Part shown: positions 1 to 64,000 of the stretch, piece by piece
Numbering within the stretch: position 1 is the stretch's first letter
Layout: each line of letters starts with the position of its first letter
Made by a program: the position numbers and the translations under genes
IMG/VR virus record: IMGVR_UViG_3300037453_000152
Direction: 5' to 3' (one strand)
Length of the DNA stretch: 64,000 nt
DNA from: a virus
Taxonomy: Duplodnaviria > Heunggongvirae > Uroviricota > Caudoviricetes
The notes under the pieces: model-generated
Seen by the model: only the letters and a program-made list of their open reading frames with translations
What the model was told of the DNA's origin: nothing
The model's database searches: none

Positions 1-267
1 ATCAGCTATTCAGCACTTGTGCGCGATGAAATGAAAAACCGCAATTATCGCACAATGGATAGTGTGTGGAATAAAATTATAAGTGTTATGAATGACAGCG
101 AATATTATATTCCCGTCCCAATTGATGAAATTTACAATGCATGGATGGATGTAACATATTTAAAGATATGTTATTATAATCTATATGAAAAATTCTTATG
201 CGGAGGAATTTCACAAGAAGATTGGGATAAAATATATTGGAAATGTTGCGGAGATAAGTTTTTCTAA
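1..267 (+). CDS. 3' end of a plus-strand gene that starts upstream of the window (hypothetical protein)
   Basis: Frame is open from nt 1. TAA at 265-267 is followed by a terminator hairpin. Confidence 0.45.
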   Translation: MSYSALVRDEMKNRNYRTMDSVWNKIISVMNDSEYYIPVPIDEIYNAWMDVTYLKICYYNLYEKFLCGGISQEDWDKIYWKCCGDKFF

Positions 268-270
268 ACG

Positions 271-311
271 AAAAAAGGGAGATACCTTAATAGGTATCTC
301 CCTTTTTTTTT
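271..311. terminator. bidirectional rho-independent terminator
   Basis: Stem GGGAGATACC / GGTATCTCCC with loop TTAATA. A-run upstream and T-run downstream. Confidence 0.7.
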
Positions 312-936
312 ATTCTTCAACGATTTCTGTTGCAGTTAATTCACCACTATCATCAACAGTGATTTTAAACATTTTTTCACTATCTTCAGTTTGAGAATGA
401 AGAATAAGTTTTTCTTCATCGTGACTAAAAGTAGTTCTTGCCTCTGGAGTTAAAGCACTCGCTGGAATTTGATCATCCACTATTGGATAAAAACCAATCC
501 AACCATGTTGGTTATTACCTTTGCCCCAATAAGTATATTCCCAACGATATGGATAAGTGGTTCCACTTGTTAAAATAATATGGATTGTTTTTCCTCCACC
601 TATACCATTTTCTTTTATAATTTCTACAACTGCTTCACCATTTGAAATAGTAACTCCTTTATTGTGGAAGTCGCTACATCTTAATTCTCCTAAGAAAGTC
701 ATACCCTCTATGGCTTCATCGTCATGATCTATGTCATAACAGAAATTAGCAATAGTAGAATTTGTGCGCCAATTTGAATTAAATGGCATATATGCTCTTA
801 ATTCATCTTTTTTAGCATAAATATCTAAATCAGATTTTAAAGCATAATCACTTAAATCAACTTCTGGGGCAGTCAAGTTTCCACTGCCACTACCAGAAGT
901 CTTTTTTGTTAATGCATAAGTAAGTAAATCAATCAT
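310..936 (-). CDS. hypothetical protein, last gene of the minus-strand structural operon
   Basis: ORF track 310..948. ATG at 936 overlaps the upstream TGA as ATGA. TAA stop. Confidence 0.6.
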   Translation of the reverse strand: MIDLLTYALTKKTSGSGSGNLTAPEVDLSDYALKSDLDIYAKKDELRAYMPFNSNWRTNSTIANFCYDIDHDDEAIEGMTFLGELRCSDFHNKGVTISNGEAVVEIIKENGIGGGKTIHIILTSGTTYPYRWEYTYWGKGNNQHGWIGFYPIVDDQIPASALTPEARTTFSHDEEKLILHSQTEDSEKMFKITVDDSGELTATEIVEE

Positions 937-1100
937 ATCGTCACCCACTCATTTTTGCCCATGCATAAATAGACTTTTTCATCTTCTTTGCAAAATACTT
1001 TACTACCTGGATCAGCAAATAAAGATAAAATATTTAATTTATCCAAAGTGGTAATAGCATATTCATTTTTTCCAATAGAAACAATACCTTCTAAATTCAT
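933..1100 (-). CDS. small hypothetical protein (55 aa)
   Basis: ATG at 1100 preceded by GGTGTAG. Ends TGA at 933-935 with an ATGA overlap onto the next gene. Confidence 0.35.
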   Translation of the reverse strand: MNLEGIVSIGKNEYAITTLDKLNILSLFADPGSKVFCKEDEKVYLCMGKNEWVTI

Positions 1101-1124: not shown

Positions 1125-1364
1125 TTATTCTTCTCCTTGTGTCTACTCTTCAATTACATCATGTTGATAGTTATCTAATTTAATCTTCTGGCCAGCTTCA
1201 TTTAAAATAAGTGCGCTGTGAAGAGGAATATTGGAAATTGCGGCGGACGCAAGAATAGTGTGATAACGGCTTGCCGCTTCCTAGAAGCTATCATAAGTAG
1301 CAATTGGAGGAATACCAATACTATCATCGGCATATTTTTGAATTTCAATAACTAGGTATTTCAT
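1125..1364 (-). CDS. hypothetical protein (79 codons, 2 in-frame TAG)
   Basis: RBS AAAGGAG then ATG at 1364. No TAA/TGA until 1125. TAGs at minus-strand codons YDSF*EA and EE*TQ. Confidence 0.45.
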
Positions 1365-1403
1365 TTAAAATTTCTCCTTTGATTTTTAAATTTTTAGACA
1401 TTA

Positions 1404-1697
1404 AAGAGATTCATCTATTAAATCTTCAATTTGTCCAATTACTTTTTTATCAATAACAAACCCATCGGCTGTCATTAACATAACCATTTGTAACTAACGA
1501 TCTTCGCGTAAGCACATAGCACCCCAAGTTGAAGCAAACTCGCCAGTTGCTCGTAAAAGTGTTTTATCAATATCATTATTATAATTACGTGAATCAAACG
1601 CTTTTGGATAACCGCTTAATGTGTTATAAGATCCATCAGAACCTACAATTTTTGCATAAACTTCATAAATTTGTCTTTTAATTGGTTGTTCGCTCAT
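1404..1697 (-). CDS. hypothetical protein (98 codons, 1 in-frame TAG)
   Basis: RBS AAGGAGC then ATG at 1697. ORF track 1494..1703 continues through TAG 1491-1493 to TAA. Confidence 0.5.
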
Positions 1698-1713
1698 TTT
1701 CAAGCTCCTTTCA

Positions 1714-4122
1714 TTAAGACATTCGTCTTAAGTTTTGTATATTGTTATCGGACAAATAGGATAAAGATTGTTCTACCCAACTTCCGTTAACTTTCTTATA
1801 AACTTTAGAAATTTGTGTCCAAGTTCCGTTTAATTTTATATACAAAGTATCTGTAATAGCTACAGTGCTTGTAATAACTAAAGTATGCGTAGCATTAATA
1901 TTAGTAAGTCTATATTGATAACTTACAACATCATTGCCATATTTATCCACACCAGTTTCTTCTTCTAGTGTTTGCTATATTCCATTATCTGTTAAAACTA
2001 CATTATCAGTTAAATGGTCTGGAACTATATTAATTGTATAAGAATCTCCAGCAAGTTTAACTTGCTATCCATCTGGGAATAATCTACATCCAGTTCCAGA
2101 AGAAGTAATAAAATAATAACTTACATTACCAAAAACAAAAATCAAACTATGTCCTGCTTGAATATTATTTAAAGTATAAGTATAATCTCCCCCTGCATCA
2201 GTTGCTTCAACCGATAATATTTTCCATTGCAAAGTATCATTATTGCTATCAGTATAATTATCTTTTCTATATTTGATATCAATATAATGAGTTCCAGAAG
2301 GAATAGTATATGTTAAAGTTTGTGCACTAGACGTATTATCGCTAGAAGCGCTACAACTATGATAAGCGCCGCTATCTGCGGTTGAGGTTGTACCTAATGC
2401 AGTATCAACTTGTCCAAAAATACCATAGTCATATGTTGCTTCTGCGTAATTAATATATTGAATAGTTACTAAACAAGAAGTTTCAAAATTGAAATTAACT
2501 CTAGCAACTGCCGCAGAAGACGCTTGACCAGTATTAGTTGAAACATAATATCCTGTATTATTATTTAAATTAAATCCATAACTTGCGCCAGACACTTGGG
2601 TAGTAATCGTATAAGTATTAGTTGGCGCTCCACCAACTAATTGAGAAGTAATATCTACTCCATTATCTAATGCTAATGTTAATTGTGGGTCACTTGGAGT
2701 AATTGTTATAGTATGATTTGTTCCTGCTATAACTCTTGTTGTACCACTACCAGGTGAAGTTGTAGCATTAATACTTGAAATAGTTAAAGGATAATATGTA
2801 TACTGTGGGTCTTCTTCTGGAGGGATATATGCGCCAGCATTATCTATTAAAATAACATGGTCGGCCGCAAGATCATTTAATGAATAAGTCCAATAGTAAG
2901 GATTTTCAGCAGTAACAGTATAATTAACAGTTAATGTAGCACCAAAGAATGACCAAGTTGATTGGGTTGTTGTATTTGAAGTTCCTCTTTGAACTTGAAA
3001 TAGAATTTTTATATTGTTTAAATCTGCGCGAGTCCAAGTTCCACCGCTAACAGTAACAGTTGTTGGCGATGAGTTGCTACCAGTAACAGATACTGAACTT
3101 GTTTTATTTGTTGTTCCACTGCATAAATATACTACATAAGAAGTATAATATGAAGAACCTTGCGAACCACACTTAACTTGACAACTTACTGAAGTAATTG
3201 TTGCATTTGCAGGAATCGAAGAACAATCAAAATTATAATACATTTTTGAAATTTGATTAGAACCTTGAACTGAATACAATGCGCATCGTGTTGTTGAATT
3301 ATGGTCAGTTAAACCATTAGCAATAACATTGGTTGAGTAAATACCATTACCATTATCGCCGCCGGTAGTATCATATACTGAATTAGTGCTATCAAATGAT
3401 GATGGTATAAAAGTTCCTGATGCTGTTGTTGATACACTATTATGACGAACTAATGAACTTGTTATATCAGTATCATTATCAGTAACAGTAATTTCATCTA
3501 TACTTGAACCGTCAATACGAATTTCTGCGCTATTGCCACCTAATATATTTTGACTAGCAGGAGAAACATTTATATCTTGAACTAAAGAAGATGCTACAAC
3601 TGTATATTCTGTTCCTTGTAAAGAATATGTAATATATAATTCAGCACCATAAATATACATAGAAGCGGAACTTGAGGTTTGAGATGTGCCTCTTGTAGCA
3701 GTAAATCTAATTCGTGCTGTTTGTAATTCTGCTAAAGTCCAATTCCCAGCATCAGAAATAGTAGCTGGGCTAGGAGAAGAAGTAGTAGAACGAAAATTTG
3801 CTGTATCACCTTTTGCCGTTGTATTGGCATAAAATTGCGCAATAGCAGAAGCAATACGAGTAGTATTATTAACTCTTGCTTTTATTTTACCACTAACAGA
3901 ACTAATTGTAGCGCCAGAAGGAATTCCTGTTATATTAAAAGTATATGTTACGTATGAAGCAACGCCAGAACCACTATTACAAGTAATTGTTGAATAAGTA
4001 GTGCTAGAAGTATCAGTTTGCGCATTAGCATTATTAGAACCAGTAGAATAAGAAGATTGAGAAGTATTAATTCCAGAAGGGATAAAGGTTAAAGTTTCAC
4101 TTACATTTATAGGTCTTGACAT
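1714..4122 (-). CDS. tail fibre / large structural protein (~802 aa, Ser/Thr/Asn-rich, 2 in-frame TAG)
   Basis: ORF 2065..4122 continues in the same frame through TAG 2065-2067 and a second TAG into ORF 1714..1950. RBS GGAGGG then ATG at 4122. Real TAA at 1714. Confidence 0.75.
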
Positions 4123-4125
4123 TTA

Positions 4126-5400
4126 TTATTGCCCTCCAGTCGTCTGGAAATATAAATCTCCATTACTTCCAGTAGAGGAAGACGGTGCAGATGTGCCAGT
4201 ATAATAAGTATACACTACTAAATTTCCTGTAACCAATGAACCATTAACATAAGCTGTTTTTGTATTTACTATATCACCAGAAGTGGCAGTTGCTCCAGAA
4301 GTAAATGTGCCAGATACTCCAAATATACTAACACCAGATTTAATATTTGCGGCAACCAGGTTCGCGTCACCGGAGATGGTTTGCGCGCCGGTTAAGTAGG
4401 TGCCAGCCGCAATTGCTTGGTTAGAAGTTGATGGAGTAATTGTTGCAGCAGCCTTTGTTGTAACAGATGCAGTTAAAGAAACAGAAGAGTCACCCGCTGT
4501 TCCAGAAGAAATGTAGCCTGCACTTGTGACATTGGGTGTTACACTAATTGTTTTAGTTAGTGTAATAGTATTTGTGCCCGTTGTTAAAGTTGCGCTACTG
4601 CCAGAAATTGCGCTTGGCGCAGTCACTGCGCCGTTTGCAACGGCATTAATTTTATAATATCCACCGGTGCTATTATATCCAGTTGGGATATTAATATACT
4701 AATCCGATGTGCTTCTAGAAATTGTTGCTTTTGAAGTATATCCAGATGTTACGCTTGCTGCCGCAGCGGTGGGCAACGTCATAGATGCTACAGACTGCGA
4801 AGCACTTGACGCATAATAACCTGCGGGCGCAGTTACTGTATCGCCGGATACGGCCAAATCAGTGCTGCTTCTCCTGGTTATTCCAGAGCCAACATAAGAT
4901 GAAGATATAGCGTTAATCTATACAGAGCTTAAAGCATCATATCCATTATCTGGCTCAATGGTTTGACTGCTTTCTGTTGGAGTAATATTTGTTTTTGCTT
5001 GATAAGAAGGTGTTTCTCCTTCAACAGATACATCAACGGTTGCGTAATTAGTAACATCAATTCCTGTTCCATTTGAGGAGATTGCTTTTGTTCCACTTAC
5101 TAATTCGCTTGCAGAAACTGTTACAGCTGTGCCGGTAAGCGTTCCACCGGAGATCACGCCTGCCGTATTGGTGACGCTCGGAGTGATGCTGACAGAGTGG
5201 TTGGACACAGTGCCTTTCGTTGCGGTTGGAGTTCCCTCTGTTCCGCTACCGACTGCACCGGACACCACTTGACCATCTGCTCCGTGTGCCGTGTAGGAAG
5301 AGAGCAGATTGGACGATGCGACTGTATCGGAAGTCAAGTCCATCCAAATTACAGGAGTAGCAGACGCGTTTTCCTTGTAAACGATTTTTGAAATTGCCAT
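4126..5400 (-). CDS. tail fibre-like structural protein (~424 aa, Gly/Ser/Thr-rich, 2 in-frame TAG)
   Basis: ORFs 4918..5400 and 4126..4626 share a frame with no TAA/TGA between them. TAGs at 4918 and ~4720. RBS AAGGGGG. Confidence 0.7.
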
Positions 5401-5412
5401 AGTGCTACCCCC

Positions 5413-6072
5413 TTATGACCACTTTGCTAACTTGTAGCTGTAAGTGACGGATGAAGAAAACCGTGTAGCGTTAGAATCAGTCACCATGTCGAGCGTGAGG
5501 GTTCCGTTTGAATATGTAGCGTGCGGTGATGATGAATCACCGTATCCGCTTAGTGAATGATTGACCTCTCCGACATACTCGCTAAAACCGCCAGTAGAAC
5601 CATCAACGGTTATCATTAACTCTGTGTCTTTAATAATCACCAAAGACACTACACCACGGTACGATGCACTTACGGAAAGGTCACCATAAACATAGATTAG
5701 ATCTGGTGCAAAGGAACAAGAAATCTGCTGTTGAATCGTTCCAGACCCAACGAAAGTTCCGGTATCGGATTGGGCAGAACTACCACCAGATGCAGAACCT
5801 GCGGTCTTGACTCCTTGTGCCGTGTAAAAATATTTTCCTTGGGCAACGTCACTAGCCGTGGCCGTCGTATCTGAGATATCTAGCGCAGTAATGGTGCGAA
5901 TATCGCCACCGCCGGAATCAGGAGTATCAACGATGGAAATAGCTGGTGTATTATTAGAAGTTTCTGTAATAGTAATATCATCTTCCATATATTTTCCAGA
6001 TGTTTTTAATATTTTTGTTGTGTTTGAGAAGGCGGTTAATTGATTGTTTTTATAATTTACTTGAACTGACAT
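5413..6072 (-). CDS. structural protein (219 aa)
   Basis: Intact ORF with RBS GGAGG and a TAA stop. Confidence 0.65.
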   Translation of the reverse strand: MSVQVNYKNNQLTAFSNTTKILKTSGKYMEDDITITETSNNTPAISIVDTPDSGGGDIRTITALDISDTTATASDVAQGKYFYTAQGVKTAGSASGGSSAQSDTGTFVGSGTIQQQISCSFAPDLIYVYGDLSVSASYRGVVSLVIIKDTELMITVDGSTGGFSEYVGEVNHSLSGYGDSSSPHATYSNGTLTLDMVTDSNATRFSSSVTYSYKLAKWS

Positions 6073-6083
6073 AATATACCTCC

Positions 6084-6782
6084 TTAAACTACTGTCCCAT
6101 CATAGGTTGGTAAATCATTAATGGTTAAATATCCAGTTGGATTTGTTGTTGCATTATATGCTGTTGGAATTGTTAAACCAGAAATAGAATCATCTACATA
6201 TTTTTTATTTGCGGCTCCTGTATTAGTTGTTGGAGTTGGAATGCCAGTAACTGAAGTTCTTGTAATGGTGATTGTATTTGATTGAACAGGACCATATGAG
6301 GAAGTAATTAATTTAATTTGATTTTCACCCAATTGAATACTACTTCCGCCATTCTATAACTCAGCATTTAAATAAATAGCTTGTGTTCCTGAGTTACAAT
6401 CTGTACTTACTGTTGCAGAAGTACCACTTATATTATGAGAATTTGAAATAGAGGAATGACTATGACTACTTGCCGCGGCACCAATATCTGCCGCAGAAGA
6501 TGGAATAGTTAAAGTAACTGCGCCAGTCTAACCATTCACACTAGTAACAGGAGCGGAACTTAACTTGTTATTCCAATTTGTAATATCATTAGATGTAATA
6601 CCTGCGGCCGCAGACGCAGTAAAAACAGGGTCTGTTTCAGTGTAAGAAGTTAAATAACCAGCATCATTTGTAAAACTACTTACGGTTGTTGGAATATTTA
6701 TTGCCGTAAGTCTTTCTCTTGCAACAGTATCTTTTAAATTATAAATTGTATTATTTAATTTAACTTTGGAGAGGTCTGCCAT
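6084..6782 (-). CDS. structural protein (232 aa, 2 in-frame TAG)
   Basis: ORFs 6528..6782 and 6084..6332 are in the same frame. TAGs at 6528 and 6354. RBS AAGGAGGG. Confidence 0.65.
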
Positions 6783-6791
6783 TTTTTACCC

Positions 6792-7010
6792 TCCTTACAA
6801 AGTATTTATTACCAAAATATCATCTTCTACTTCATACTAATTACTAATAAAAGGTAAAAGATTTACTTTAGTTTTTCCATCACCAATTTTAATACCATTA
6901 GGTTCAAAATCAGTATATATAATAATCTCCCCTTCTTTTGGAATAAAATTTTTTGCTTTACTCCAATTTTCAGAAGTATCTTTTTTTATTAAAGTCTATT
7001 CTTTAATCAT
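6792..7010 (-). CDS. small hypothetical protein (72 aa, 2 in-frame TAG)
   Basis: RBS AAGGAG then ATG at 7010. Open frame to TAA at 6792. Confidence 0.4.
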
Positions 7011-7024
7011 ATATTTTCTCCTTA

Positions 7025-7063
7025 AAACAAAAAAACGGCTAGGGATATAATTATCCCTAGCCG
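7025..7063 (-). terminator. rho-independent terminator / attenuator inside the structural operon
   Basis: Stem CGGCTAGGGA / TCCCTAGCCG followed by a U-run on the minus-strand transcript. Confidence 0.6.
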
Positions 7064-7151
7064 AGAAAAAATTATATCCCTTATCGTTTCAAAGTTTTAT
7101 AATTTATTTTTTTAAATAATTTCTATCATTTCAAGAAATAAAAAATTTAAA

Positions 7152-8477
7152 TTAGGTAGCTACTCCAAAAGTAACATTGGCAGTCTTAGAAGAGCTATTC
7201 AATGTTGGAGTAATAGTCTCAGAAGCAACAGTAACCTTACCATCAGTGCCGGCCGCAGAAACGGTTGTAGCAACTGTTGGAGTAACGCTCTTGGAAGTTC
7301 CAGAGAATGAGGCTGTAAATGTTGGCTGTGTGACTGTTGCCGCAGTAGAAGTGTAACTTGGTGTAGCGGTTAATAAGGTGCCAGTTCCAGAGAACGAGGC
7401 AGTTGCGCTAGCACCTGTAATACCGGTGACAACGCTTTGAGTTCCAAACGTTGGTAAAGAGCCAGATAACGATGGAGCCGTGTAACTTACTGTGCCAGAG
7501 GCAGTTACAGCAGAACTGGTAGAAGCAGTCGTAAGAATTAATGTTTCAGATTCGTCTGAACCACCAGTGGCGGTGTTGTCTTCTCCAACGGTAGCAACTA
7601 CACCCTCAACAGCGAACGTGCTTGTTGTATCACTACCCTGACTTACAGAACCGTCTGTAAGCTGATAGCTGGTTCCTGAATTGGTAACAGTAGCTACGTT
7701 TCCGGTGCTTGGAGTAACAGTAACGTCAGTTACTGTAACACTACCAGCAGGAGTATAGTTAGCAGTTTGATTTGCTCCTGGAGCGGCAGAAGCAACGGTA
7801 ACCGTGGTAGCCTTATCATAGCTTGCGGCCGCAGCCGTTCCGGCGGTCAGTGAAACTGAACCAGCTGGCGTTACATCAAGAGCATCATATGTTGCTGGAA
7901 CAGAAACAGCAGTTGAAGAAACATCATAATTACCAGCCTTACCGGTTGAAAAACTATTTACAGAATCAACGGTTGAAATAGAGATACTACCATTGTCCTT
8001 ATAGGCAAGAGCCTTTAGTCCAAGAGCGGTCTATAATTCAGATGCAGTAATATTATCCTGCATATCAACGCCAGCAATAGTAAAAGTCTTTACTACATAA
8101 GCATTCTCTGAACCAACTTCACGCCAAGATGTTCCATCATATAACCATTCTGAACCGTTGCTTTCAACAACAAAATCACCAGCGGCGACTGCATCAGTGC
8201 CAGTGGTTGGAACTAGAGTGTGGTCAGATTCGCTGCGAAGATTTAAAGCTGTGCCAATTGCGCCAACCTGTCTACCTACATAATCATAAACTTGACCAGC
8301 GGTAGGGATATCTGTGTTGTTAGCAGCAAAAGAGTTTGTATTTGATGCTACATCATAAGTAACTACAGAACCAAAACTGTCAAGGACAGAACGAGCATCT
8401 GCGTCTTTCATATAATAAACAGTATTACCAAGTTTAACTTTTGAAAGAACTGGTGTATGCGTATATGTTTGAGCCAT
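7152..8477 (-). CDS. major structural protein candidate (441 aa, repeat-rich C-terminus, 1 in-frame TAG)
   Basis: ORF 8031..8477 continues past TAG 8031-8033. Codon-by-codon check finds no TAA/TGA down to TAA at 7152. RBS AAGGAG. A terminator follows the gene. Confidence 0.7.
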
Positions 8478-8495
8478 TGTTTATTATCTCCTTTC

Positions 8496-9026
8496 TTAAA
8501 ATGTAAAAATTAATAATTCTTTATCTGTATCAATTGACGTTTTACATCTTAAATCTAATTCGTCAGTGATACTTTTCTATGTCATAGTTCCATCTGTATT
8601 CTATCCAATAGTAGAATAGAGTTTCACAATGCCAGCCTATTCACTGGTCGCAGAAGGAACTGCGCCATTGCCTCCATTTATCTTTACATATGATATTCCA
8701 TCATAGTGATAAATCTAACTTGTAATTTTATCTATATAGATTTTATTAATCATTGCGGTAGAAATTGTTTGTTTAGTTGGGTCTCTATAAAAGATACCGT
8801 TGTCATAATAGCCGAATTGAACCATATTTCTAATATCTTCATCAGCATATTGTAATTGTCCATACGGTGTTGCGCCATCCCCAACCTTTGCGCGCAGCCC
8901 CTAATTAGCTACATCAACTAGCACAACCTCTCCGCTTGCCGGGATAAAAGTATCTTTTACTTTTTCAAAGTTGAAGTCATTATCTCGTCTTAACTATATT
9001 GTAGCATTAATCTTCTTCATCTTCAT
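8496..9026 (-). CDS. hypothetical protein (176 aa, 6 in-frame TAG)
   Basis: ATG at 9026 lies within the end of the upstream gene. 177 codons without TAA/TGA. Ends TAA at 8496. Confidence 0.5.
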
Positions 9027-9375
9027 CTTCCGCCTCTCTACCCATTACTTCTGAAGCAGACCCTCCAAAAATAACAAGTTCTTTAAAGGATGCTGCGATA
9101 GCGGCGTCAATGGTAAGAGTAATGTCTTCTTTCATTTTAGCCAAGGCAAGTTCCATAATCTCATTTACCAGGTCTTTCTTTGATTCATTTAATAATTTTA
9201 CTACATAATCGTGAATCTATGTCATATCCTAGCTATCATCATCATAATCATTATTCACCGGATAAGGATATGGAATTGGTGGGAAAATATAATGGCTTTG
9301 TGAATAATAGCCTCTCATATTTTCGGTATTGTAATAAGTATGACTTTCACCGCTTAAATAATCACGCAATTTCAT
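9007..9375 (-). CDS. hypothetical protein with acidic C-terminus (122 aa, 2 in-frame TAG)
   Basis: RBS AAAGGGGAGG then ATG at 9375. Open frame to TAA at 9007. Confidence 0.5.
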
Positions 9376-11255: not shown

Positions 11256-12029
11256 ATGGGATATATTTATAAAATCACCAATAAAATAAATAATAAGGTG
11301 TATATAGGTTAGACCTGTAAAACCATAGAAGAAAGATATAAGGCTCATTTGACGAAAGCAAGATAGCATATAAATCGTTATTTATACGACGCTATGAATA
11401 AATATGGGTATGATAATTTCTTTGTTTAGAAAATAGAAGAGTGTGATAATAATAAATTAGATGAAAGAGAAATTTATTGGATTGCGTTCTATAAATCTAA
11501 TAATAAAAAGTATGGATATAATATGACAAGTGGCGGCGGTGGCGGAGACACTTGGTCTAAAAATAGTCATAAAAATGAAACTTCTAAAAAAATAAGTGAG
11601 TCAAATAAAGGAAAACATCATCTTACCGAAGAATAGATTTAGAACTTTGCTAGAATAATGAAAGAAAAAAATACAATAAAGATAGATAAAAAAGAATTAG
11701 AAGCAGATATAAAAAGTTTTATGCCAATAGAAGAAATATGTAGAAAATATAAAATAGGAAGAAAAACTTTTTATAATAAATGTAAATTGTTTTTTAATGC
11801 CACTCCAACAGAAATTCGTGGAGATAAATTAAAACATACTAATACAATGAAAATTACTATTGACAAAAGTCAATTAGAGAAAATGATTTTACAAGAAAAA
11901 AGCTTGGAAGAAATGGCTAAATTTTTTAGGGTTAGTAAAGAAACTGTTAGAAGAAATATAGTATAGTATTATGGAAAGAATTTAAGGGACGTGAGAAAAG
12001 ATGTTAAATCCAAAAACCAATCTGCGTGA
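11256..12029 (+). CDS. GIY-YIG homing endonuclease with C-terminal HTH repeats (257 aa, 6 in-frame TAG)
   Basis: N-terminus GYIYKITNKINNKVYIG*T...ERYKAHL...KYGYDNFF, followed by ORF 11658..11966 in the same frame. RBS AAGGAGG. Ends TGA at 12027-12029, overlapping the next gene. Confidence 0.65.
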
Positions 12030-13269
12030 ATTGGCTTATGTTGTATTAATTGATAAAATTGAACCAATTATTGGCTCTGACAACTGCGAATGTGCCGTTG
12101 TTGGTGGATGGCATATAATGGTAAGAAAGAATCAGTTTAAAGAAGGAGACCCTGCTATTTACTTTGAAATTGACAGCAAAGTTCCTTCTGACAGAGAATG
12201 TTTTGCTTTTCTTGAAAAGCGCAACTATAAGGTAAAGACACAGAGATATACTTTTGGAGGAAAAGGTAATTTTATTAGTCAGGGCCTACTGATGCACGCG
12301 AATGATTTCGGTTGGGAATCTTTTAATAGAGTTACTTGTGAAAGACTTGACATTATTGATGCCAAGTGCCCTGGTGTTCTTGATGATAATGGAGATTATC
12401 ATTTCGCTATTGGCGAATCTCGTTTCCTAACCCAAAAACTTGGTGTAACTTACGCCGAGGCAGAGGATAATCAGCGCAAAGCGCCTTCCTTTGATAAGTA
12501 TAAGAAGATGGCGCAGCGTCATCCTGCCATCTTTAAAAAGCCCTGGGCTCGCTGGATGATGAAGCGCAACTGGGGCCGCAAGGTAATGTTCTTGTTTTTC
12601 GGTAGAAAGAAGGACAAGAAGAATGGCTGGCCTTCTTGGGTTGTAAAGACCGATGAAGAGCGCATTGAGAATATGCCTTGGATTCTTAAAGATAAGGATC
12701 CTTGGATTGCTACCGAAAAAGTGGATGGCTCGTCTACCACTTTTACCATGCGCCGCAAGAAGTTTGGCAAGGTTGAATTTTATGTCTGCTCGCGTAATGT
12801 GTGCTTTGATACCATTGATAAGCCCTGCTATTACGATACCAATATCTATTGGGAAATGGCGCAGAAGTATGATATGTATAATGTTTTGAAGCGATTTTTG
12901 GACGAGCATCCTCAGGCTGAATGGGTTACCATCCAGGGTGAGACCTATGGCGAAGGGGTCCAGAAGAATACTTATGATATTTCTGGTCATGATTTTAAGG
13001 CTTTCAATCTTATCACTTCTGATAACGGACGTTGGAACTCCATCGTGATGAAGCACGTTCTTGAAAATAAATACAATATTCCTTGCGTTCCTATTCTCTG
13101 CGAAGAGTATATCCTACCCGATACAGTTGAGGAACTGCGCAAGTATGTAAATAGCGAAACTTCTACTATCAACCAGAAAATGAAGGAGGGTATTGTATTC
13201 AGATCTCAGGATGGAACCAAGTCTTTCAAGTGCGTTTCTCCAGAGTATTTGATTAAGTATCATGGATAA
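12001..13269 (+). CDS. ATP-dependent RNA ligase-like nucleotidyltransferase
   Basis: Motif I TEKVDGSS (KxDG). 422 aa. TAG-free. Confidence 0.55.
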   Translation: MLNPKTNLRELAYVVLIDKIEPIIGSDNCECAVVGGWHIMVRKNQFKEGDPAIYFEIDSKVPSDRECFAFLEKRNYKVKTQRYTFGGKGNFISQGLLMHANDFGWESFNRVTCERLDIIDAKCPGVLDDNGDYHFAIGESRFLTQKLGVTYAEAEDNQRKAPSFDKYKKMAQRHPAIFKKPWARWMMKRNWGRKVMFLFFGRKKDKKNGWPSWVVKTDEERIENMPWILKDKDPWIATEKVDGSSTTFTMRRKKFGKVEFYVCSRNVCFDTIDKPCYYDTNIYWEMAQKYDMYNVLKRFLDEHPQAEWVTIQGETYGEGVQKNTYDISGHDFKAFNLITSDNGRWNSIVMKHVLENKYNIPCVPILCEEYILPDTVEELRKYVNSETSTINQKMKEGIVFRSQDGTKSFKCVSPEYLIKYHG

Positions 13270-22027: not shown

Positions 22028-22267
22028 ATGGAAAAATAGATTTAGCTAATTAAAAAAGAATTAAAGCCTAATGATATTATAATTGTTAAGTTTGATATAG
22101 AAAAATGGGATATAGAAGAATGTGCTTGCAAATATAATGAAATAAAAGAAAAAATCCGTCATAATCCAGTCATTGGTCTGGTTGATGGTGTTGAATTATA
22201 GTTTGAAGATTGGGAACGTTTATACCAATATGTTATGTCTATTAAACCATAGAGAGGAGAAGATTGA
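22028..22267 (+). CDS. small hypothetical protein (79 codons, 4 in-frame TAG)
   Basis: RBS AGGGAGG then ATG at 22028. Frame open to TGA overlapping the gyrB-like start. Confidence 0.4.
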
Positions 22268-26708: not shown

Positions 26709-26710
26709 AC

Positions 26711-26739: not shown

Positions 26740-26770
26740 ATAAATATAAAGTAAGGAGTAGATTGTAGCG

Positions 26771-54638: not shown

Positions 54639-57098
54639 TTATAGCAAAGTAATAGTAAAAGGTATAAGCTAATAATTAGTATTAATTGCCGAATTATATA
54701 TTCTAGATACACTACTGCTAGTCGAATAAAAATAATAATCTTTCATACCTTCATCATAAAACATAAAGCCAACATCACCTACAGAAAAAGTTCTTTGAAG
54801 ATTTATTAGTTTTATAGTTCCACTATCTGTTACATACAACATTTTTGATACTGTTATAGCTGATTGACGATTTAATAAAAAATCTATTGGATAAGTATAT
54901 GAATCAAAATATGCCGATGTTGAAGAACCAGGTGACACATCATCAAAAGAAAGAAATATAATATTAACCGCTGAATATTTTGAAAGATCATCCATATCGA
55001 AGGTTGAATTATAACAGAGCCAACCTGCAGAAGGTGTAGTATACCTCTATATTAAATAATTGTTTGAAGCTTTCTCAATTGAACTTAAATTAGACATACT
55101 TATAAATGCATCTGAACTAGTTTTTATTGCAGCAAATGAAAAATATTCAACACTTCTATTTTGCCAGCTTGATGCAACATTGGTTCCATTTGAAACTAAT
55201 ATCTATCCAGCGGTTCCAGAAGTTGGTATTAAATCACCTTTAATACCAGCCGGCACTGTCATTATGCCAGTTGACATGTTAATAGTTGGTTTCTTAGTTC
55301 CATTATTAATATTAGAAATTACACCATAGGTGCTTGCATAAGAACTTGTATGGTTTAATGGACTAGTGCTCACGCTTGATGTTTTCGCGCCAGTAAGGAT
55401 TGGAAAATCTACATCAGTATTATATGCATAGGTTCTCATAATAGTATTAGTATTAGCATCAGAGCCCCAAGCAGGAACACCACTACTATTTATTTTTAAA
55501 ACCTAACCTTCTGTTCCTACGGGTAAACGAGCAGGAGTTCCGGAATCAGACCAATAAATAATATCGCCTGCGGCAGTACCAATAGAATTTGGAATATAAG
55601 TGCTTGTAATTGTATTGCCAGAACCATCTTTTCCAGCTTTAAGATTTGCGGTTGTAATAGCAGTTATGCGGCCGTTGGCTGCAACATATACTGCCGTATC
55701 AGTATCACCAACTTTTTCAGTTCCAGCGGTATGCGCCAAATAGCCATTACCTCCATAATTAGGTAAATACATAGTTCTACTCGTTGTACTATTTAAAGCA
55801 CTCATTAATGCAGTATATGCTTTATTAGGTCCATATAAATAAATTGCGCCTTTTGCGTTATTTGCAGTTCCACTGGCGGTAGCATTACCCAAAGATAATC
55901 CACCTATTCCATCAACGCTGGCAGTACCCGCTGTTACTAAATATAAATTACCATATTTTACAGCATTTGTATCTTCAACCTAAAATCCAGATACACCTGA
56001 ATTACTTGCAGCATCCGTTTGAGTATGGAAAAATTTGGCATAAACGTTATTCCAAATATTTGTTTTTGTAACGCCAATATCTAATACACCAGTCTAACCA
56101 GTTTCTGGATGAAAATGTCCTGTTGTAGAAAATCTAGCTCTCATAGTATCGCCTGTTGTAAAAATAATAGAAGCAGATGTCTCTGCTGTACCAGAAGCCA
56201 AGTATAAAGTACTTGACGATCTTATAATTTTACCAGCCACAGAACTACTATTTAATGTATAAGCGCCACCAATGTTTAAATTTGCGCCAACTTGTATTCC
56301 GCCATTAACATAAAGTTTTTCACCACTGCTATTAGAAGTTGCTCCAATAGCTAAACTACCATTTGCTCCTAAGTGACTTAATCCACCTAATTTAAAAACT
56401 ATCTAATTAGTAGATGAACTAGTACTTGGATTAATAATAAATGTACCGGCAGTAGTATTAGCAGTTAATGCTAAATACTATGTACTAGTACTTCCAAAAA
56501 CAATCTACGAAGTATTTCCTGTTCCAGAACTAGCTACACCAGGTAAGTAAATATGACCAAAATTTGTTAAAGAAGATGGCACACCAGTATGACCATTATA
56601 AACATCTCCACCAGCGTATTGTAAATATAAACCACTAACTGCTGCACTATTAGCAGTTAAAGCCTACATTCCATTATATCCTAAATCTAAATGTGTATCA
56701 TTATCTGGACCAAGACGTAATCCATAATTGTCGTCCAAAGTAGCAAAACCATCATGATTTATTCCCTAAATTCTACCATTTTTATATACTCTAAATAAGT
56801 CATTATTACTATGAAGACCAATAGAAAGAAAATTATTATTATTATTACTTCCAGCATAATAATATCCAAGATATCCTGAATTACCTGCGGCGGCTTCTTT
56901 ACCCAATCTAATAGTACTATGCGAACCAGTTGCCATATTAGGAGTAAAATAAGAAATACCATTCTAATAACTTCCGTTCTCAATGGTAGCCGTATTTTCA
57001 GCTGTTATAATTGGATTTGTTGTATTTGCGCTAAATCGTGCTATATTAAGAAAACGAGAAGCACCATTAACTATTAAATCTTTTAACTGAGCGATAAG
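54639..57098 (-). CDS. tail fibre protein (~800 aa, ~13 in-frame TAG). Start unresolved
   Basis: One frame is open from the TGA at 57099-57101 down to TAA at 54639, joining ORFs 55503..55892, 55203..55439 and 54669..54995. First in-frame ATG is at 56936. Confidence 0.55.
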
Positions 57099-57158
57099 TC
57101 ACTCCTCCTCTCATAATATTTTTCTTTTATTTTAGCAAAAATATTTTTAGAAGTCAAA

Positions 57159-57728
57159 TCAATATTCATAAAGTTCTGCCCCCTATGCAACATTATTTTC
57201 AAAAAATGCTTTTGGTTTACTAATTCTTGCATAAAGAGCAAGATATTTTGTACATACCCCAGTAGCGTCATTAGACCCAAAACCAGGAATTCCAGTTTTA
57301 CCGCCGGTAGAATAGGACGAGTAGCTGCCGCAAGCATTCCACCATGGAGAAGTAGAAGATATTGCCAAAGCAGCTTTCTAAGAATTTTTACATATTCCAT
57401 TTCTGACCGTTCCAGAGATTAATATAAAATCAGTAATTGCAGTTGTTGTCCATGGAGCATTCGTCTATGTCCAACGATGTTCAACTCCATCTTGAATAAC
57501 ATAAAATTCATATTTATTATCATATACAAAACTATCAATCCACTATAATCTACTAAATAAGCCAAAATTGTTACAATAGCCACAATTATCAGATGTAAAT
57601 AAATTATTTCCATTGTCAACATAGTGGAATAATAATAATTGCCAATTAGAACCATCAGGTAGTGATATGAATGATTCAATTGACTAATTTCCTTTTAAAA
57701 TTCCAGTTTTTGAAATATTTAATGCCAT
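57159..57728 (-). CDS. hypothetical protein (189 aa, 5 in-frame TAG)
   Basis: TAATG overlap with the upstream gene. Includes ORF 57183..57368. Ends TGA at 57159. Confidence 0.45.
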
Positions 57729-59575
57729 TATTCCACCAACTCTCTTGCATAAACGTTTCCAGCAGCATCTATTGCCATTGAAGTATTATAAAGTTCTTTA
57801 ACTTGCGCTTCTGTTAATGCGGTAGCATAAACTCGAACATCAGACATTTTTCCATTAAAATAATTAGTATTTGGATTGCCAGAATTTGAACTTAAACCAG
57901 TACCTATAAAAAGCACCGATGTTGATTTATAATATAATGGCACTTTTTCACTATAAGGTGTTATTGTTGTATCTGGGTTTCCATCAATATATAAAACTCC
58001 AATTTTACCATCATATGTGACCATAAAATGATGCCATCCAGAACTTAAACTACTCCACGTTGTGTTACTTACTATATTTTTATATGTATTTGAAGATTCT
58101 CCAGTTCCTAAATAAATATAAATTTTATCTGATGAAGATGAAAAACACCAACCCGATGAATCAGCACAAGCCATGAGTCTTGAGTTTGTAGAATAATTGC
58201 TCCAATTATCCATATATGCCCAACATCCAAAAGAAATAGCATCTCTAACAAGAGCACCTTTTCCAGCATTAATGGCAGAACTGCTAAAGCCCGTTGCACT
58301 TTCATATCTTGAAGAACCTGTAATAGCGGTTAAGGTGTTATAAACTATAGTGCCATTATTGCCATATCCAGAAGAATCATAGATTGTTGTTGGAGTTCTA
58401 GTAGTCTGTGCCGGAGTCCAAGCAGTACGATGGTCTTTTGCTTCAACCTAAATCTAAGATATAGAATATTCTGTATCTACTTCAACATTATTAGTAAAAT
58501 AAAATTTTAATTGTAAATTATCATCATCATTATATAATGTAGATGGAACTGTTATAGTGCCAGCAATATATCCAACAGCCCCAGGCTATATATCAAAAGT
58601 ATCTAGCGCAAGTCTTGTCCAACTTGACCATCCACTTGTTAATCTATATCTCTACTTAAGATATTTTGCAGAAGTACCAGTATTATTATCTATAAATACA
58701 GAAATTGTATAAGTTCCTTCTGATGTTAATTTAGCAATATAAAAATTACTTCCTACATCCTTTCCAGATGTTATTACACCTGAATAAGTATCTATTTTAG
58801 ATAGATTTGTAGTTACTTCGCAACTCATGTCATCTAATTTATAATGTAATACTAATCCCTTGCTTAATTCTTCCACTTCTTTTGGAGAAAGCGCATGGTC
58901 ATAAATGCGCACATCATTAAAATATTCTTTTAAACAAATTCTTTGTTGTGCTATATTACTTGCATTATGATAGCTATTAGCCCTATTTAATCCAACCACT
59001 ATGTTTTGACTTGAAGAATTTAAAGCACTTCGTGTAACCGTCTTAGCACCCTTTAATTCTCCATTTATATAAAAACTTAAAACATTATTTTTACTAAAAG
59101 TCACAGCCATATGATACCATTTATCTAAATCAATAATTTCTGCATCTGGACCATTTATACTGGTTCCATCTGTTCTAGATGCAGCTCTGACAGAAACCTA
59201 ATTTAAGACAGTTGAATTTGTTAAACCACCTGCAGTTAATAACTACAAACATATCCCACTACTTGTTGAATTGCCATTTAATCCCATAATTTTATTTGTG
59301 ATTTGGTTTTGTGTAGAAAAATCACGAGTAGAAATATCATTATTTAAATAATCTTTATCAATTTTTACCCATAAAGCATAACTAATTTCTGTTCCAGTAG
59401 TAGAATAAACATTGGTATCTGCGTTTGGTATTCCTAAATCCAATGAACTAGTCAATTCCAAACATTTTCCCAATTTACCATTGTTATTAAAAGTTAATGA
59501 AGATGATAAAGAATTGCTTTTTAAACCCTAACTAACTCCATTATTGATAAAGGGGAACCAATATAATAAACTCAT
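57728..59575 (-). CDS. receptor-binding/tail fibre protein with two laminin-G-like (concanavalin-type) domains (615 aa, 8 in-frame TAG)
   Basis: RBS AAGGGGGG then ATG at 59575. ORFs 59243..59473, 58652..59110 and 57728..58213 are in one frame. LamG motifs DVRIYDHALSPKEVEEL and DVRVYATALTEAQVKELY. Confidence 0.6.
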
Positions 59576-61491
59576 GATGTAGCCCCCCTTGGAGAAGTAG
59601 TGCCATCGGCATTTACTATCATTGAAGTATTATAAAGTTCTTGAACCTATGCTGCGCTTAGCGCAGTTGAATAAACCCTAATGTCGGAGAGTTTTCCTTT
59701 TAATTGATAACCAATCATATTTACACTATTACTATTAATATTATCAACACGATTTCCTTTAATAAATTGTGTAGAACTGCTTCTATCCGTAGTGACTCCT
59801 TGCTAACCATTTTTATAAATTGTAAATATACCATCTTTAAATGTTATAATATAATGTGTCCATGTATTTAAAGCTACTGTACCAGTAGGAGCCCATCCCC
59901 CAGTTCCATCAGACTAATTTGCCCAAGTAACCATTATTCTTTCTTTATAATCTGAACTACTACTTATTCTTATACTCATACCGGATCTTATTATATAATA
60001 ATCTTTATTTGTGGTATCTTCTGTTTTATAAATCCAAAAAGATATTGTCTCCTCTGACATTAATCCATCTGCTTGATTTACTAATGGTAGGATTGGACCA
60101 ATGTCATTTGTTCCATCAAAAACAGTTGCCACATCATACCGCGGAGAACCTACGGTCGCAGTTAAAGCTCCGTTGATAGTACCATTACGCACACATCCAG
60201 AAGAATCATATACTGTTCCTGTAATAGTTAAGGTTGGTCCAGCAACAAAATCACCTGTTCCAGCGTTTGTCAAAAATGTTCTAGTAATTATATCATATAA
60301 ACCAAGAACATTATCAGATAATCTTTTAGCCGGTACAAGTTTTTGAATACAAACTCCATTGTCATAGGTATCAAAATAATAAATTCTTGAATAACTTTTT
60401 GTTACAGTACTAGGAGGATTTGGACCACTTCCAAAAAGTTTCATTGTAGTGGCATTTTCATCTCCTGTATCTGCAAAAGCAACTGTACTACTGCGTTCAA
60501 TATTCAGTGTTAAATTTTTTAAATAAAATCCGCTTTTTGATATTTTTCCTTCAATAATATTATCCGTCATATCAGAATCCGGAGCAATTGTTGAAAATTT
60601 CCAGCCACTTGTGTTGGTTCTAAAATATAGTAATATTCCAGTTGCAGAACCATCATTAACAATCAAACGCGTTGTTTTATCTGAACTAGTGCCGGTATAT
60701 GCTCCAAAAGGTCCATTATATGCAACATGATCTCTTAACATATATTTAAACCTATATTCAAAATCATCTTCTGGTACAATGCCAGTATCTATCCATTGCG
60801 TTTTTGCACTAGTAGATTCTATATATTCTAATTGCTAATATCCAGGAGGAACAAGAACTTGATTCTCTCCCGCTAATTGATACCAAGCGACTAATCCTTT
60901 AGAAATTTCTTCTACTTCTTTTGCGGAAAGTGCATGGTCGTAAATGCGCACATCATTTAACAAGCCTTTATACCATATACTATCTCCACCTCTGCATCCG
61001 CAATACGCGTATAAAACATCTGAAGCCGTTAAACTTGTAACATTGCTTGTAGATGTTGCTTTTTGCTATCCATCAATATATAGTATAAATTTATTAGTAT
61101 CTAGTGTTAACGCATAGTGATGCCAGCTATTTATATATGAAGAAATATTATATTCTATTCCTACTGTATTTCCTCTAAAATAAACTCTTAACTTATTATC
61201 GGCTGGCTTATAATGTAACTAACAAGCATTAGAACCTACGAAACTTAATCCACAAATGTATCCAGTTGATGACTGTGTAGAATCAATTTTTGCCCAAACA
61301 GCGACACTCAGCTTTGTGAAATTGATACTAGGCAATTGTCCATAACATTTAGAACTACTTCCATTAAAACTATAACATTGACCAATCTTTCCGCTATTAT
61401 CAACCGTTAAATTATTACCAGTCATAGTCACCTGCGCTAAACCTTGATTATGTAAATCCCCATTAAGGGGTAACCAAACTTGTAAACTCAT
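59572..61491 (-). CDS. receptor-binding/tail fibre protein with LamG-like domains, paralogue of the previous gene (639 aa, 6 in-frame TAG)
   Basis: RBS AGGGGGTAA then ATG at 61491. ORFs 61219..61491 and 59914..60741 are in one frame. LNDVRIYDHALSAKEVEEISKG and IRVYSTALSAA(TAG)VQELY. Ends TGA overlapping the next ATG. Confidence 0.6.
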
Positions 61492-61505
61492 TTCATTACC
61501 CCCTA

Positions 61506-63392
61506 TTAAGTAAATACAAAATTAAGAACTTCATTAGTGCTATCATATACTAATTGAATATTTTTAGCACTTGCGGCATCCGCAGAAGTGTCACCGTTTA
61601 ATTTAATTATAGCCACTTCTGGAGTGCTATTATAAGTTGCAGCATCTGTTACCAAAGTATCTGCCCAATATAAATTTGGTAATCCAGAAAATGGTAAATT
61701 TGTTAATGCTGCGCCAGAACCAGCAAATTTTCTAGCTGTTAAAATACCACTAGTTGCATAAACTTGATCATCACTATATGTTTGCGGGTTTGCGGCTTGG
61801 CTTGTCGCCCCAATTAAATATATTTTACTTGAGGTGTCTGTTGAACCAGCGGTGTTTTTTGTATCAGTAAATACCGCATCTGATGGAACGCTTTTCTCCA
61901 ATGAATATGTTGTCGCTGTGACCATACCGAGGTTATCAACATAAACTGGTTGAGTTGTGCTTCCAATTCCCGCAGTATTAGACCTTACAATATTTAGCCA
62001 ATCATTCCATGTAGAACTACCATTTCGCTGGCGCATTAAGAAGCGCTAAGTAGACCCTAGCGCGAACTAAGCATCATAATTTGAACTACTATGATAACCT
62101 CTTACATTATATAATTTAAAACCAGAGACTGTAGTAGGAACCGTCCCCAATAAAGACTATGATATAACAGATGAACCAGAATAAAAAGTCCCATAGTCTA
62201 AACTATCAACGTTGCTAGAATTAGTAATTAAGGCTGTTCCTTGTTCAGTAATAGATGGTCCTCCAAGCGCTGTAAGCGCAGCTAATGCTTCAGTCTATCC
62301 AGTGCCTCCACTTTCTATTGGTATAATCTTTTTTACAAAAGTTGAAGTTGGATTAGTTAAAGTTAATGTTGTTGCAGCTGGAGCACTTGATCCAATAGAT
62401 TCAATCGCATTAGTTTTTGAATCTTGAAGATAGCAATTTGCTAACCAATAAGTGATCGAAGTACCATTCGGCGTTACTTTTATATATAAATAATTTTTTG
62501 TAACAGAATCTTCAGTTACAGACCCCATCATAGCTTGCATACTACTAATCTAATTAAATGGATCTGTATAACAACATGGATATGTAGTATTAAAACCACT
62601 TTTATTAAAATAAATATTAAAACTAATTGAAGCTAGGTAAGATGCTGCAGACCCTAATAATGTGCCAGAAACACGCTTATAAGCTGCCCCTGTTGGAATT
62701 TCTATATTGGTTTTTATGTAAAAATCGTCAGTTCCAGTATAAGTAGAGTAGAAACCCTCGCCAACCATAGCAGCTGTATTAATAGCGGTAATTCTACCGT
62801 TAGCAGCGACATAAACGGGTTGAGTTGTACTTCCAACTGCTCCACCGTGTTCCATATAAACAGCGCCATCAATATTGTGCTCTATTTTGGCCCAGTCATT
62901 ATTAACAACTGCGCTTCCAGAAGAAGGACCGTCATTAATAGCAATAATTAAATCCCCAACTTCACAGTACTCTCCTGCGTATGTCCCAGCATCTGCTACA
63001 CGATAAGTCCAACCTGCGCTATAACCAGTCGCAGGTAAAGAAGTTATAACCTGATTTGAACCAATAACTCCTTTAAATACCATTGCGTCATTTGCGGCAA
63101 AAGCGTCATAAACAAACTCTGTTGTTGCCAACTTTGTGCTTCGATCTCCTGCTGCAGGAGTTAAAGCCGTAGGCGACTAAGAAAAACTAACTGGACCAGT
63201 TGCCAATAGTGAACCAACAGTTGCATTTGATATTGTAGTCTAATTACTCAGTGTTGTATTACCAACTACGGTCAAAGTTCCGGATAAATCTAAATCTGAG
63301 CCATAAATTTTCCATTTCTTATTGGAATCGCCAAGACTGTACGTATCAGTTGTACTTGGTATTAAACTCGCTTTAAAAGTTAAATTAGCCAT
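61506..63392 (-). CDS. tail fibre protein (628 aa, 7 in-frame TAG)
   Basis: RBS AAAGGAGG then ATG at 63392. ORFs 62550..63131, 62295..62540 and 61506..62036 are in one frame. SGGTG(TAG)TEALAALTALGG fibre motif. Repeated YVAANGRITAI motif. Confidence 0.6.
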
Positions 63393-63413
63393 GTCTTAGA
63401 ATTCCTCCTTTCA

Positions 63414-64000
63414 TTAATTTGGACCCTCTATTGTTACATTGCCAGTATTATCATTGGCTACGGTAAATACAAATGTAACTGTATCATTGTTTGTTCCATC
63501 GGAATTTAAAGGACCATTTGGAATTGTAATGCTAAAAGTTTTACCCTTTGTTAAAGTAACTCCAGTAATATATTTTGTTACAGAAGTTAATGGCACATTA
63601 GATTGCGCCCCTACCACTTCTTCATTATCGGCTTTTGACACCCAGCCATTAACAGCGCCATTGTATAATACAGCTGTTGTTGAAGCACTTGCTGCGCCGG
63701 TCACAGAAATTCCATTATCGGTATTACTTAATGTGACATTAGAACCACTAAGGCTCGCAGAGCCAATAATGGTCCCGCCATCAAACGCTGGAGTAGCAGT
63801 TGTAATTGGGATATAAGTATCATCTGAAGCCTATGCTCCAACCGAAGCGACATAAGATGAATAATTGGCATTTGCTGGAGTATAACCAGCAGTAGTTGAA
63901 GTTGTAAAAGTTAACTAACCAAGTGTCTAAGCAGATTTTACTTTTACATAAACTCCGCTAGATGGGGCTGTAGTGGTCGCATTGCCATTAGCGGCATCGG
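63414..64000 (-). CDS. 3' part of a structural Ig-like/fibre protein continuing beyond the window (3 in-frame TAG)
   Basis: Frame of ORF 63414..63704 stays open to the window edge. TAA at 63414. Confidence 0.45.

Follow-up and report, generated by a model that had tools for sequence, protein, structure and literature searches.

Introduction

Recoding of the amber codon TAG to glutamine was described by Borges et al. in many clades of gut phages. In those phages recoding affects the genes for structure and lysis, the recoding of replication genes is variable, close relatives can have different codes, TAG suppressor tRNAs were detected in only 40% of the TAG-recoded genomes, and the evolutionary path is one of TAG depletion followed by capture. 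A second described system is phAss-1 of the proposed Phassvirus (Babkin et al., PMC10607447), a gut phage of ~136 kb in which TAG stands for glutamine in 28% of the open reading frames (ORFs) and which, with three tRNA-Sup(CTA) genes and a large complement of tRNAs, lacks a dedicated aminoacyl-tRNA synthetase (aaRS). For crAss-like phages, Peters et al. (PMC9523058) report the validation of code 15 by metaproteomics. Here we analyze the genetic code of a stretch of 64,000 nucleotides from a tailed phage (Caudoviricetes; IMG/VR virus record IMGVR_UViG_3300037453_000152), called the window throughout, for which an earlier examination of the letters alone (the sequence-only reading) had claimed that TAG is reassigned to a sense codon, most likely glutamine.

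The window resembles the code 15 phages of Borges et al. in having in-frame TAG at glutamine positions, structural and lysis genes that are recoded, replication genes that are recoded to a variable extent, a low GC content (36% over the 64 kb) and stops dominated by TAA, as well as relatives that carry a tRNA with the anticodon CUA, tRNA(CUA), and that are recoded to different degrees. It also shares with them an animal gut habitat, a likely Firmicutes host and a genome size of 140–200 kb; to their named clades (Agate, Sapphire, Jade and others) the resemblance is in size and habitat only. It differs from the published crAss and Agate maps, in which the replication machinery is in standard code, in that the primase, RecJ and Dda genes are here among the most recoded, and it differs from the code 15 phages of Borges et al. 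in that the window showed no module for a code change (RF2, aaRS). TAG is carried by 60% of the window genes, unlike the 28% of ORFs in phAss-1, and there is no close kinship to Phassvirus (OQ749652), based on the lack of a megablast match and on DNA polymerase III (PolIII) identities below 60%, assuming that this record is in the collection searched. The crAss-like phages share the reading of TAG as glutamine, which is reported as experimentally shown for them (PMC9523058) and is argued for the window from sequence; they belong, however, to a different order and have a Bacteroidota host. The closest cultured replication module is that of the SPbeta-like Bacillus and Schiekvirus-like Enterococcus phages (genomes of 125–142 kb), whose YorL-type PolIII alpha is 37–39% identical over 99% of the length and whose genes, unlike those of the window, are uninterrupted and annotated in standard code. 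As this identity is only 37–39%, the present lineage is one without a cultured representative.

Results and Discussion

Read-through of in-frame TAG codons

ORFs of at least 60 residues were called greedily across the whole window under four sets of stop codons. Code 11 yielded 82 genes with a median length of 105 amino acids (aa) and a coding density of 0.694, whereas reading TAG as sense yielded 76 genes with a median length of 170 aa and a density of 0.933. Reading TGA or TAA as sense gave 88 and 90 genes, median lengths of 107.5 and 117.5 aa and densities of 0.734 and 0.821, respectively. TAA is by far the most frequent stop triplet in this AT-rich window; therefore, the gain in density under the TAG-sense call is not due to composition. 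The late regions, which fragment under code 11, are joined by the TAG-sense call into tightly packed genes, as the sequence-only reading had described, and table 15 surpasses table 11 in both median gene length and density.

The TAG-sense call places 144 in-frame TAG codons in 46 of the 76 genes, or 142 once two probably spurious ORFs are dropped, in keeping with an earlier estimate of about 150. Its genes end in TAA (52) or TGA (24). The rate of in-frame TAG is 7.2 per 1000 codons, versus 0 for TAA and TGA and 17–42 per 1000 in the other frames; across 20,000 codons the frames are broken by TAG alone and never by TAA or TGA. The counts previously claimed for the primase, RecJ, Dda, amidase, NrdG, UDG and RNase H genes were all reproduced (Table 1). 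The assertion that every fibre gene contains TAG is slightly overstated, as the putative structural genes at 5413-6072 and 310-936 have none. Three of the greedily called ORFs were discarded as spurious, one (12046-13341, minus strand) as it overlaps the RNA ligase gene and two (40073-40291, minus strand, and 52825-53082, plus strand) as they have TAA in relatives.

Signals of gene structure were also consistent with read-through. Shine-Dalgarno (SD)-like motifs were found at 59% of gene starts and at 56% of the starts of TAG-containing genes, versus 9% of all ATGs. Such a motif was present at only 2 of the 102 first ATGs located 3' of internal TAGs, from which it follows that the code 11 fragments do not represent genes of their own. 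The TAGs are distributed uniformly over the length of genes (Kolmogorov-Smirnov p = 0.35), an even spread which argues that they are not disguised terminators. Pfam supports the identities assigned to the genes, and a single match crosses TAGs in DHH/RecJ_OB, AAA_30/UvrD_C_2, Amidase_2, GIY-YIG (twice), Laminin_G_3 (twice), UDG, RNase_H, NRDD, Fer4_12 and PhoH. Since the Pfam models of RNase H, NrdD and Dda end at the TGA of their genes, TGA is a true stop; together with a density of 0.73 for TGA-sense versus 0.93 for TAG-sense this rules out a reassignment of TGA, and the termination in TGA asserted for UDG, RNase H and NrdD was found in all three, as well as in Dda. Pfam models also stop where genes close in TAA, and the TAA-sense density of 0.82 is likewise below that for TAG-sense. 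Judged from gene structure, TAA and TGA are the sole terminators and the code is NCBI translation table 15, with TAG appearing never to act as a terminator in the window genes.

The splitting of the region into many short ORFs under code 11 is what would also be seen if the TAGs were real stops, either in pseudogenes of a decaying element, through sequencing or assembly errors, or between fragments of split genes that are translated independently. We give this explanation practically no chance. Apart from the interruption of frames by TAG alone, the rarity of SD motifs at the fragments and the uniform TAG positions, the TAGs sit at glutamine columns (see below), and dozens of relatives sampled independently have TAG or CAA/CAG at these sites, with 48 aligned positions being TAG in the window and relatives alike. 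In addition, the sequence itself is reproduced by other contigs: L021 and L228 (JGI sample 3300037455) have 100% identity to window positions 213-1132 and 59936-64000, and L010 has 98.7% identity over 4.4 kb with the NrdD TAG kept. The earlier exclusion of read errors and pseudogenisation is thereby upheld by identical independent contigs, shared TAG sites and the lack of in-frame TAA or TGA.

The amino acid read at TAG

Approximately 100 loci were fetched from IMG/VR with three queries (PolIII alpha, the RNA ligase and one conserved membrane protein), and ~80 of these loci were used in a codon-level tblastn alignment. The residue profile opposite TAG was then matched, in pair and site models, against the profiles found for all 20 amino acids. 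Of 539 aligned pairs, 204 placed a window TAG opposite CAA/CAG, with Glu (57) and Lys (54) next in frequency, and reciprocally, TAGs of relatives were opposite CAA/CAG of the window in 168 pairs. Glutamine was the best model both at the level of pairs (mean log-likelihood of -2.47 versus -3.37 for the runner-up) and at the level of sites, where it scored -182.6 versus -260.9 for the next model, Lys, a difference of 78 log units (77 sites, all loci).

Across all loci, glutamine was the commonest residue at 30 of the 77 TAG sites (39%), compared with 53% of CAA/CAG sites and 1.3% of other sense-codon sites. The excess over the 1.3% background (binomial P = 5e-36) indicates that the TAG columns are not at random positions. 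The lower conservation of TAG sites than of CAA/CAG sites (39% versus 53% with a glutamine majority) is a point on the other side of the glutamine assignment. When relatives of standard-code appearance were considered alone, glutamine was found at 39 of 113 pairs and was still the best model, and in the closest relatives 93 of the 158 codons opposite window TAGs were CAA, CAG or TAG.

Nine TAG sites were at least 90% Gln/TAG in at least eight relatives. These include Dda residues 142 and 362, which are glutamine in every relative aligned (15–17 of 15–17). The former is the TAG at 40688-40690, the glutamine of helicase motif III (GDPE-TAG-LPPV), and aligns with glutamine in the solved structures 9kwf, RecD2 (3e1s), T4 Dda (3upu) and 8bns; the latter is the TAG at 41348-41350, the glutamine of TVWKA-Q-GSEW, and aligns with glutamine in 9kwf, 3e1s and 8bns, the T4 Dda match stopping short of this residue. 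For the primase, every relative has Gln or TAG at residues 187, 287, 289 and 306, and 9 of 10 have Gln at residue 171. The TAG at 11310-11312 lies inside the YIG-Q-T motif of a GIY-YIG endonuclease (VYIG-TAG-T), and the second GIY-YIG gene spells the equivalent YVGQA with CAA, at 30139-30141. A pair of LamG paralogues provides a comparison internal to the window, the TAG at 59647-59649 (minus strand) aligning with CAA at 57803-57805. For the Dda, GIY-YIG and LamG sites, both the coordinates and the motifs of the sequence-only reading proved to be correct. The LamG paralogues are two adjacent fibre genes (57728-61491), each with two Laminin_G_3 domains and with the near-identical C-terminal motifs ALTEAQVKELYNTSM and ALSAA-TAG-VQELYNTSM.

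Other amino acids that could be read at TAG are Glu, Lys, pyrrolysine, Tyr, Trp, Leu or Ser, and it is very improbable that one of these is the correct assignment. Glu and Lys do rank next after glutamine in frequency opposite TAG; however, they are the usual substitutes of glutamine and the same pattern was seen at the CAA/CAG control sites. A few TAG sites align with aromatic residues (for example, W/F at Dda residue 289 and F at primase residue 19), to be set against the margin of glutamine over the next model at site level and the TAGs at sites kept as glutamine in relatives and solved helicases. Pyrrolysine is suggested by the label 'tRNA-Pyl' that ARAGORN gives to the tRNAs(CUA) of relatives, but ARAGORN names any tRNA with this anticodon 'Pyl', the tRNAs in question are ordinary cloverleaves and not of the atypical tRNA-Pyl shape, and no pyl genes were seen among the scanned proteins. 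From the agreement of pair models, site models and helicase structures, we conclude that TAG is almost certainly read as glutamine in the window genes.

A suppressor tRNA as the probable decoder of TAG

By analogy with relatives of the phage and with the literature, TAG is probably decoded by a suppressor tRNA whose gene lies outside the window. This would be an amber-suppressor tRNA(CUA) encoded by the phage, one that derives from tRNA-Gln or mimics it and that would be charged by the host, either by GlnRS or, where the host is without GlnRS, by GluRS and GatCAB, although we know of no amber suppressor for which charging by the latter route has been shown. The E. coli suppressor supE, a tRNA-Gln(CUA) that reads UAG and inserts glutamine in competition with RF1, is a mechanistic analogue. 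It is a weak, partial suppressor and a supE cell keeps TAG as a stop, whereas suppression in the window phage must be efficient: genes with up to 11–12 TAGs, 10–12 in the most recoded, would still need to give a full-length product.

Relatives of the phage provide evidence for such a tRNA. Loci with the same surroundings of the RNA ligase gene as in the window, which include phosphatase, RNA ligase, Band7, AAA_33 kinase, phosphoesterase, PhoH, RNase H and gyrase genes, have tRNA arrays of up to 21 genes, and in relatives arrays of 8–21 genes occur within 10 kb of the RNA ligase. Three of these loci (L037, L046 and L053), all of them TAG-recoded, have a tRNA with the anticodon CUA next to the RNA ligase. 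Those of L046 (U1.C72, G73) and L053 (U1-A72, G73) have a weak first pair and G73, as in the tRNA-Gln(UUG) of the clade. A looser pattern of anticodon and T-loop matched, among the matches listed, the more distant L117 (identical to L053), L155 and L185; the matches in L155 and L185 are to the anticodon loop and T-loop of tRNA(CUA) by sequence pattern alone, not by fold. The window has, at 9740-16319, a set of genes resembling a tRNA-repair module, in which the RNA ligase is accompanied by an AAA_33 kinase (15250-15750) and two metallophosphoesterases (9740-10567 and 15729-16319).

A number of negative results weigh against a suppressor encoded by the phage. No tRNA was identified in the window by ARAGORN, by Rfam at its gathering thresholds or by Rfam at E <= 5, nor by ARAGORN in ~40 kb of each of the closest relatives (the PolIII loci plus one step outward), nor in the loci from bins of metagenome-assembled genomes (MAGs), nor in the 1.2 kb by which the contig L228 (L228:1-1248) extends past the right end of the window. 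A search for a Gln-type D-loop combined with CUA matched only four unrelated phages, and no contig of a closest relative was among the matches listed for the looser pattern. The tRNA(CUA) of L037 (G1.U72, A73) does not look Gln-like, and none of the scanned proteins was recognized as RF2, as GlnRS or another aaRS, or as the product of another code-change gene.

These absences, together with the detection of TAG suppressors in only 40% of the recoded genomes of Borges et al., are what would be expected if the phage had no suppressor of its own and TAG was read as glutamine by the host, or by a near-cognate host tRNA in combination with a phage factor that disables RF1. This is quite unlikely in our judgement. 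The window covers roughly one third to one half of the genome, and relatives sharing its gene neighbourhood do carry tRNA(CUA). Furthermore, the 30 TAG-free genes, including that of the 1317-residue PolIII alpha, fit translation in a standard-code cell, and a host-wide code is hard to square with relatives that range from TAG-free to a TAG share of 23%. To our knowledge, there is also no bacterium in which TAG is read as glutamine. A phage-encoded suppressor outside the window is, therefore, the reading that we retain.

Uneven use of TAG among genes

TAG makes up ~20% of all glutamine-type codons in the window, and its share differs between genes (chi-square p = 1e-15). Thirty of the 76 genes are TAG-free, among them those of PolIII alpha, GyrB, GyrA, the NAD-dependent ligase, DnaB, RNA ligase, Band7 and AAA_24, and TAG is abundant in the fibres, the GIY-YIG genes, Dda, the primase, RecJ and the amidase (Table 1). 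An effect of gene family was also evident across 23 recoded relatives (p = 8e-43), in which the TAG share is 0% in RNA ligase, 5% in PolIII, 6% in DnaB and 45% in RecJ. The distribution of TAG has a conserved component, which is that the core replisome stays legible in the standard code, and a lineage-specific component that is possibly neutral.

If a suppressor is supplied by the phage, the unmodified host could translate the TAG-free genes (PolIII alpha, gyrase, ligase, DnaB, RNA ligase and others) as soon as infection begins, and the TAG-bearing fibres, endolysin, homing endonucleases, RecJ, primase and Dda would be made in full length once the suppressor is present. The change in code would then be a switch for timing and safety, as proposed for other recoded phages. 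A more elaborate version, which we regard as speculative and on balance unlikely, is that uneven recoding is a programmed, three-tier expression switch in an undescribed lineage of Bacillota phages. Under it, the TAG-free core replisome may form a first tier that is translated at once, and the heavily recoded RecJ, primase, Dda and homing endonucleases, as accessory enzymes of DNA, may form a second tier, and the recoded virion and lysis genes a third, both of which may be held until an amber suppressor is available. That suppressor adjoins a tRNA-repair module in relatives, would have moved away or been replaced here, and would, in a host without GlnRS, need charging by GluRS and GatCAB.

Several observations count against regulation as the full basis for the pattern. 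The TAG share of Dda is 5% in relatives (0–3 TAG) versus 50% here, at a protein identity of 77%, while NrdD has the opposite trend with 21% in relatives versus 3% here. In addition, the split between early and late genes is imperfect, as the primase, RecJ and Dda are TAG-rich here. As Dda and NrdD flip between lineages and the early/late division is not clean, part of the TAG pattern may be drift and not regulation.

Lineage, relatives and host

The window is part of a large uncultured tailed phage from ruminant gut samples, with a genome of probably 140–200 kb. Identities to its PolIII alpha among the fetched loci were 55–100%, and the contigs concerned are up to 140–200 kb in length. Comparison with GenBank phages by megablast (window positions 40000-60000) gave no match, and all tblastn matches of PolIII alpha to those phages were below 60% identity. 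The host is most likely a member of the Bacillota: PolIII relatives were found in MAG bins that bear the names Bacillota and Clostridia (the latter from roe-deer abomasum), and the cultured phages nearest to the window infect Enterococcus and Bacillus. An exact 41-mer had no match in IMG/VR and an exact 48-mer none in JGI metagenomes, and exact protein matches led only to fragments of 920 bp and 5.3 kb from the same phage. No relatives were found with the leftmost gene (310-936) as query, and there is no terminase gene in the window.

Most of the fetched loci were TAG-recoded according to the density test, with TAG shares that ranged from none to 23%. In the relatives of standard-code appearance, TAG is used as a stop in just 12 of 216 cases, which matches the published path of TAG depletion and then capture. 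One relative, L012 (IMGVR_UViG_3300045988_164870), has no in-frame TAG and has a density of 0.95 with TGA as sense versus 0.90 under code 11; its four in-frame TGAs are opposite W, L, Y and G, and TGA recoding is possible in this phage.

There were differences in gene arrangement between the window and its relatives. A block of small structural and membrane genes (window 50694-54620) is inverted relative to PolIII in L062-64, L066, L067 and L070 and has the window orientation in L065, L068 and L069. The PolIII alpha matches of L011 (2254-7337) and L017 (10001-15008) extend over ~5.0 kb compared with ~3.95 kb, a length which suggests that an inserted element (an intein, intron or homing endonuclease) is present in these two genes. 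The PolIII of L011 has 9 TAG, and in two GenBank relatives, EF1 and EF5, PolIII contains an HNH endonuclease.

Gene content of the window

The principal features of the window are listed in Table 1. It also encodes a dUTPase, in addition to its DnaB, NrdD/NrdG, UDG and RNase H. The DnaG-like primase had no Pfam match. Its gene ends in ATG-TAG-TAA (37042-37050), with a TAG immediately before the TAA stop. In a close relative the primase homologue (L001:1198-3363) is split by a GIY-YIG endonuclease ORF (2143-2907) with 5 in-frame TAG, an interruption that possibly represents an intron or gene splitting; the primase of the window is unbroken. A strong hairpin at 54150-54304, between the convergent genes 53693-54187 (plus strand) and 54207-54620 (minus strand), has sub-threshold Rfam matches on both strands (L20_leader, 33 bits versus a gathering score of 58.7) and is most likely a bidirectional terminator.

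Table 1. Features of the 64,000-nucleotide window, with their in-frame TAG codons and the share of TAG among glutamine-type codons
Feature	Position	Strand	In-frame TAG	TAG/Gln-type codons	Remarks
Phage segment read in code 15	1..64000		76 genes, 46 with TAG
Left-hand structural/fibre-like block	1125..9375	-	0-6 per gene		Extremes: 8496-9026 has 6, 5413-6072 has 0
GIY-YIG endonuclease	11256..12029	+	6	6/9	7 TAG in full stop-to-stop frame
RNA ligase	12001..13269	+	0
Amidase_2 endolysin	19609..20400	+	5	5/12
Putative membrane protein, after amidase	20400-20774		1
UDG and RNase H	20868..21979	+	2 and 1		Both end in TGA
GyrB, GyrA, NAD-dependent ligase	22267..28702	+	0 in each
Second GIY-YIG protein	29308..30360	+	8		Start uncertain; TAG in N-terminal coiled-coil part
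DnaB helicase	34230..35759	+	0
DnaG-like primase	35944..37050	+	9	9/20	Primase-like ORFs of relatives are homologous
RecJ-like exonuclease (DHH + RecJ_OB)	37136..38920	+	7
Dda/RecD-like SF1B helicase	40265..41476	+	10	10/20	Ends in TGA
DnaE-type PolIII alpha, 1317 residues	41531..45484	+	0	0/40	p = 2e-4
NrdD and NrdG	45930..48658	+	1 and 3		NrdD ends in TGA
Fibre/LamG gene block	54639..63392	-	11, 5, 7, 6 and 7
Fibre gene	54639-56936		11	11/17

Conclusions

Our analyses place a further phage lineage among those that read TAG as glutamine, and for the explanation as a whole we hold its code part to be highly probable. The novelty of the finding lies in the lineage and not in the principle, as gut phages with TAG-to-glutamine recoding have already been described and proteomically validated, and the finding leaves the known mechanism unchanged. 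Its practical consequence is for annotation: the use of table 11 for this contig and its ~80 IMG/VR relatives splits about 60% of the genes and hides fibres, endolysin, primase, RecJ and helicase, all of which are restored by table 15. With it, an uncultured ruminant-gut lineage that probably infects Bacillota joins the list of TAG-to-glutamine phages, and its graded series of relatives, from TAG-free to a TAG share of 23%, represents material for studying the gene-by-gene spread of recoding.

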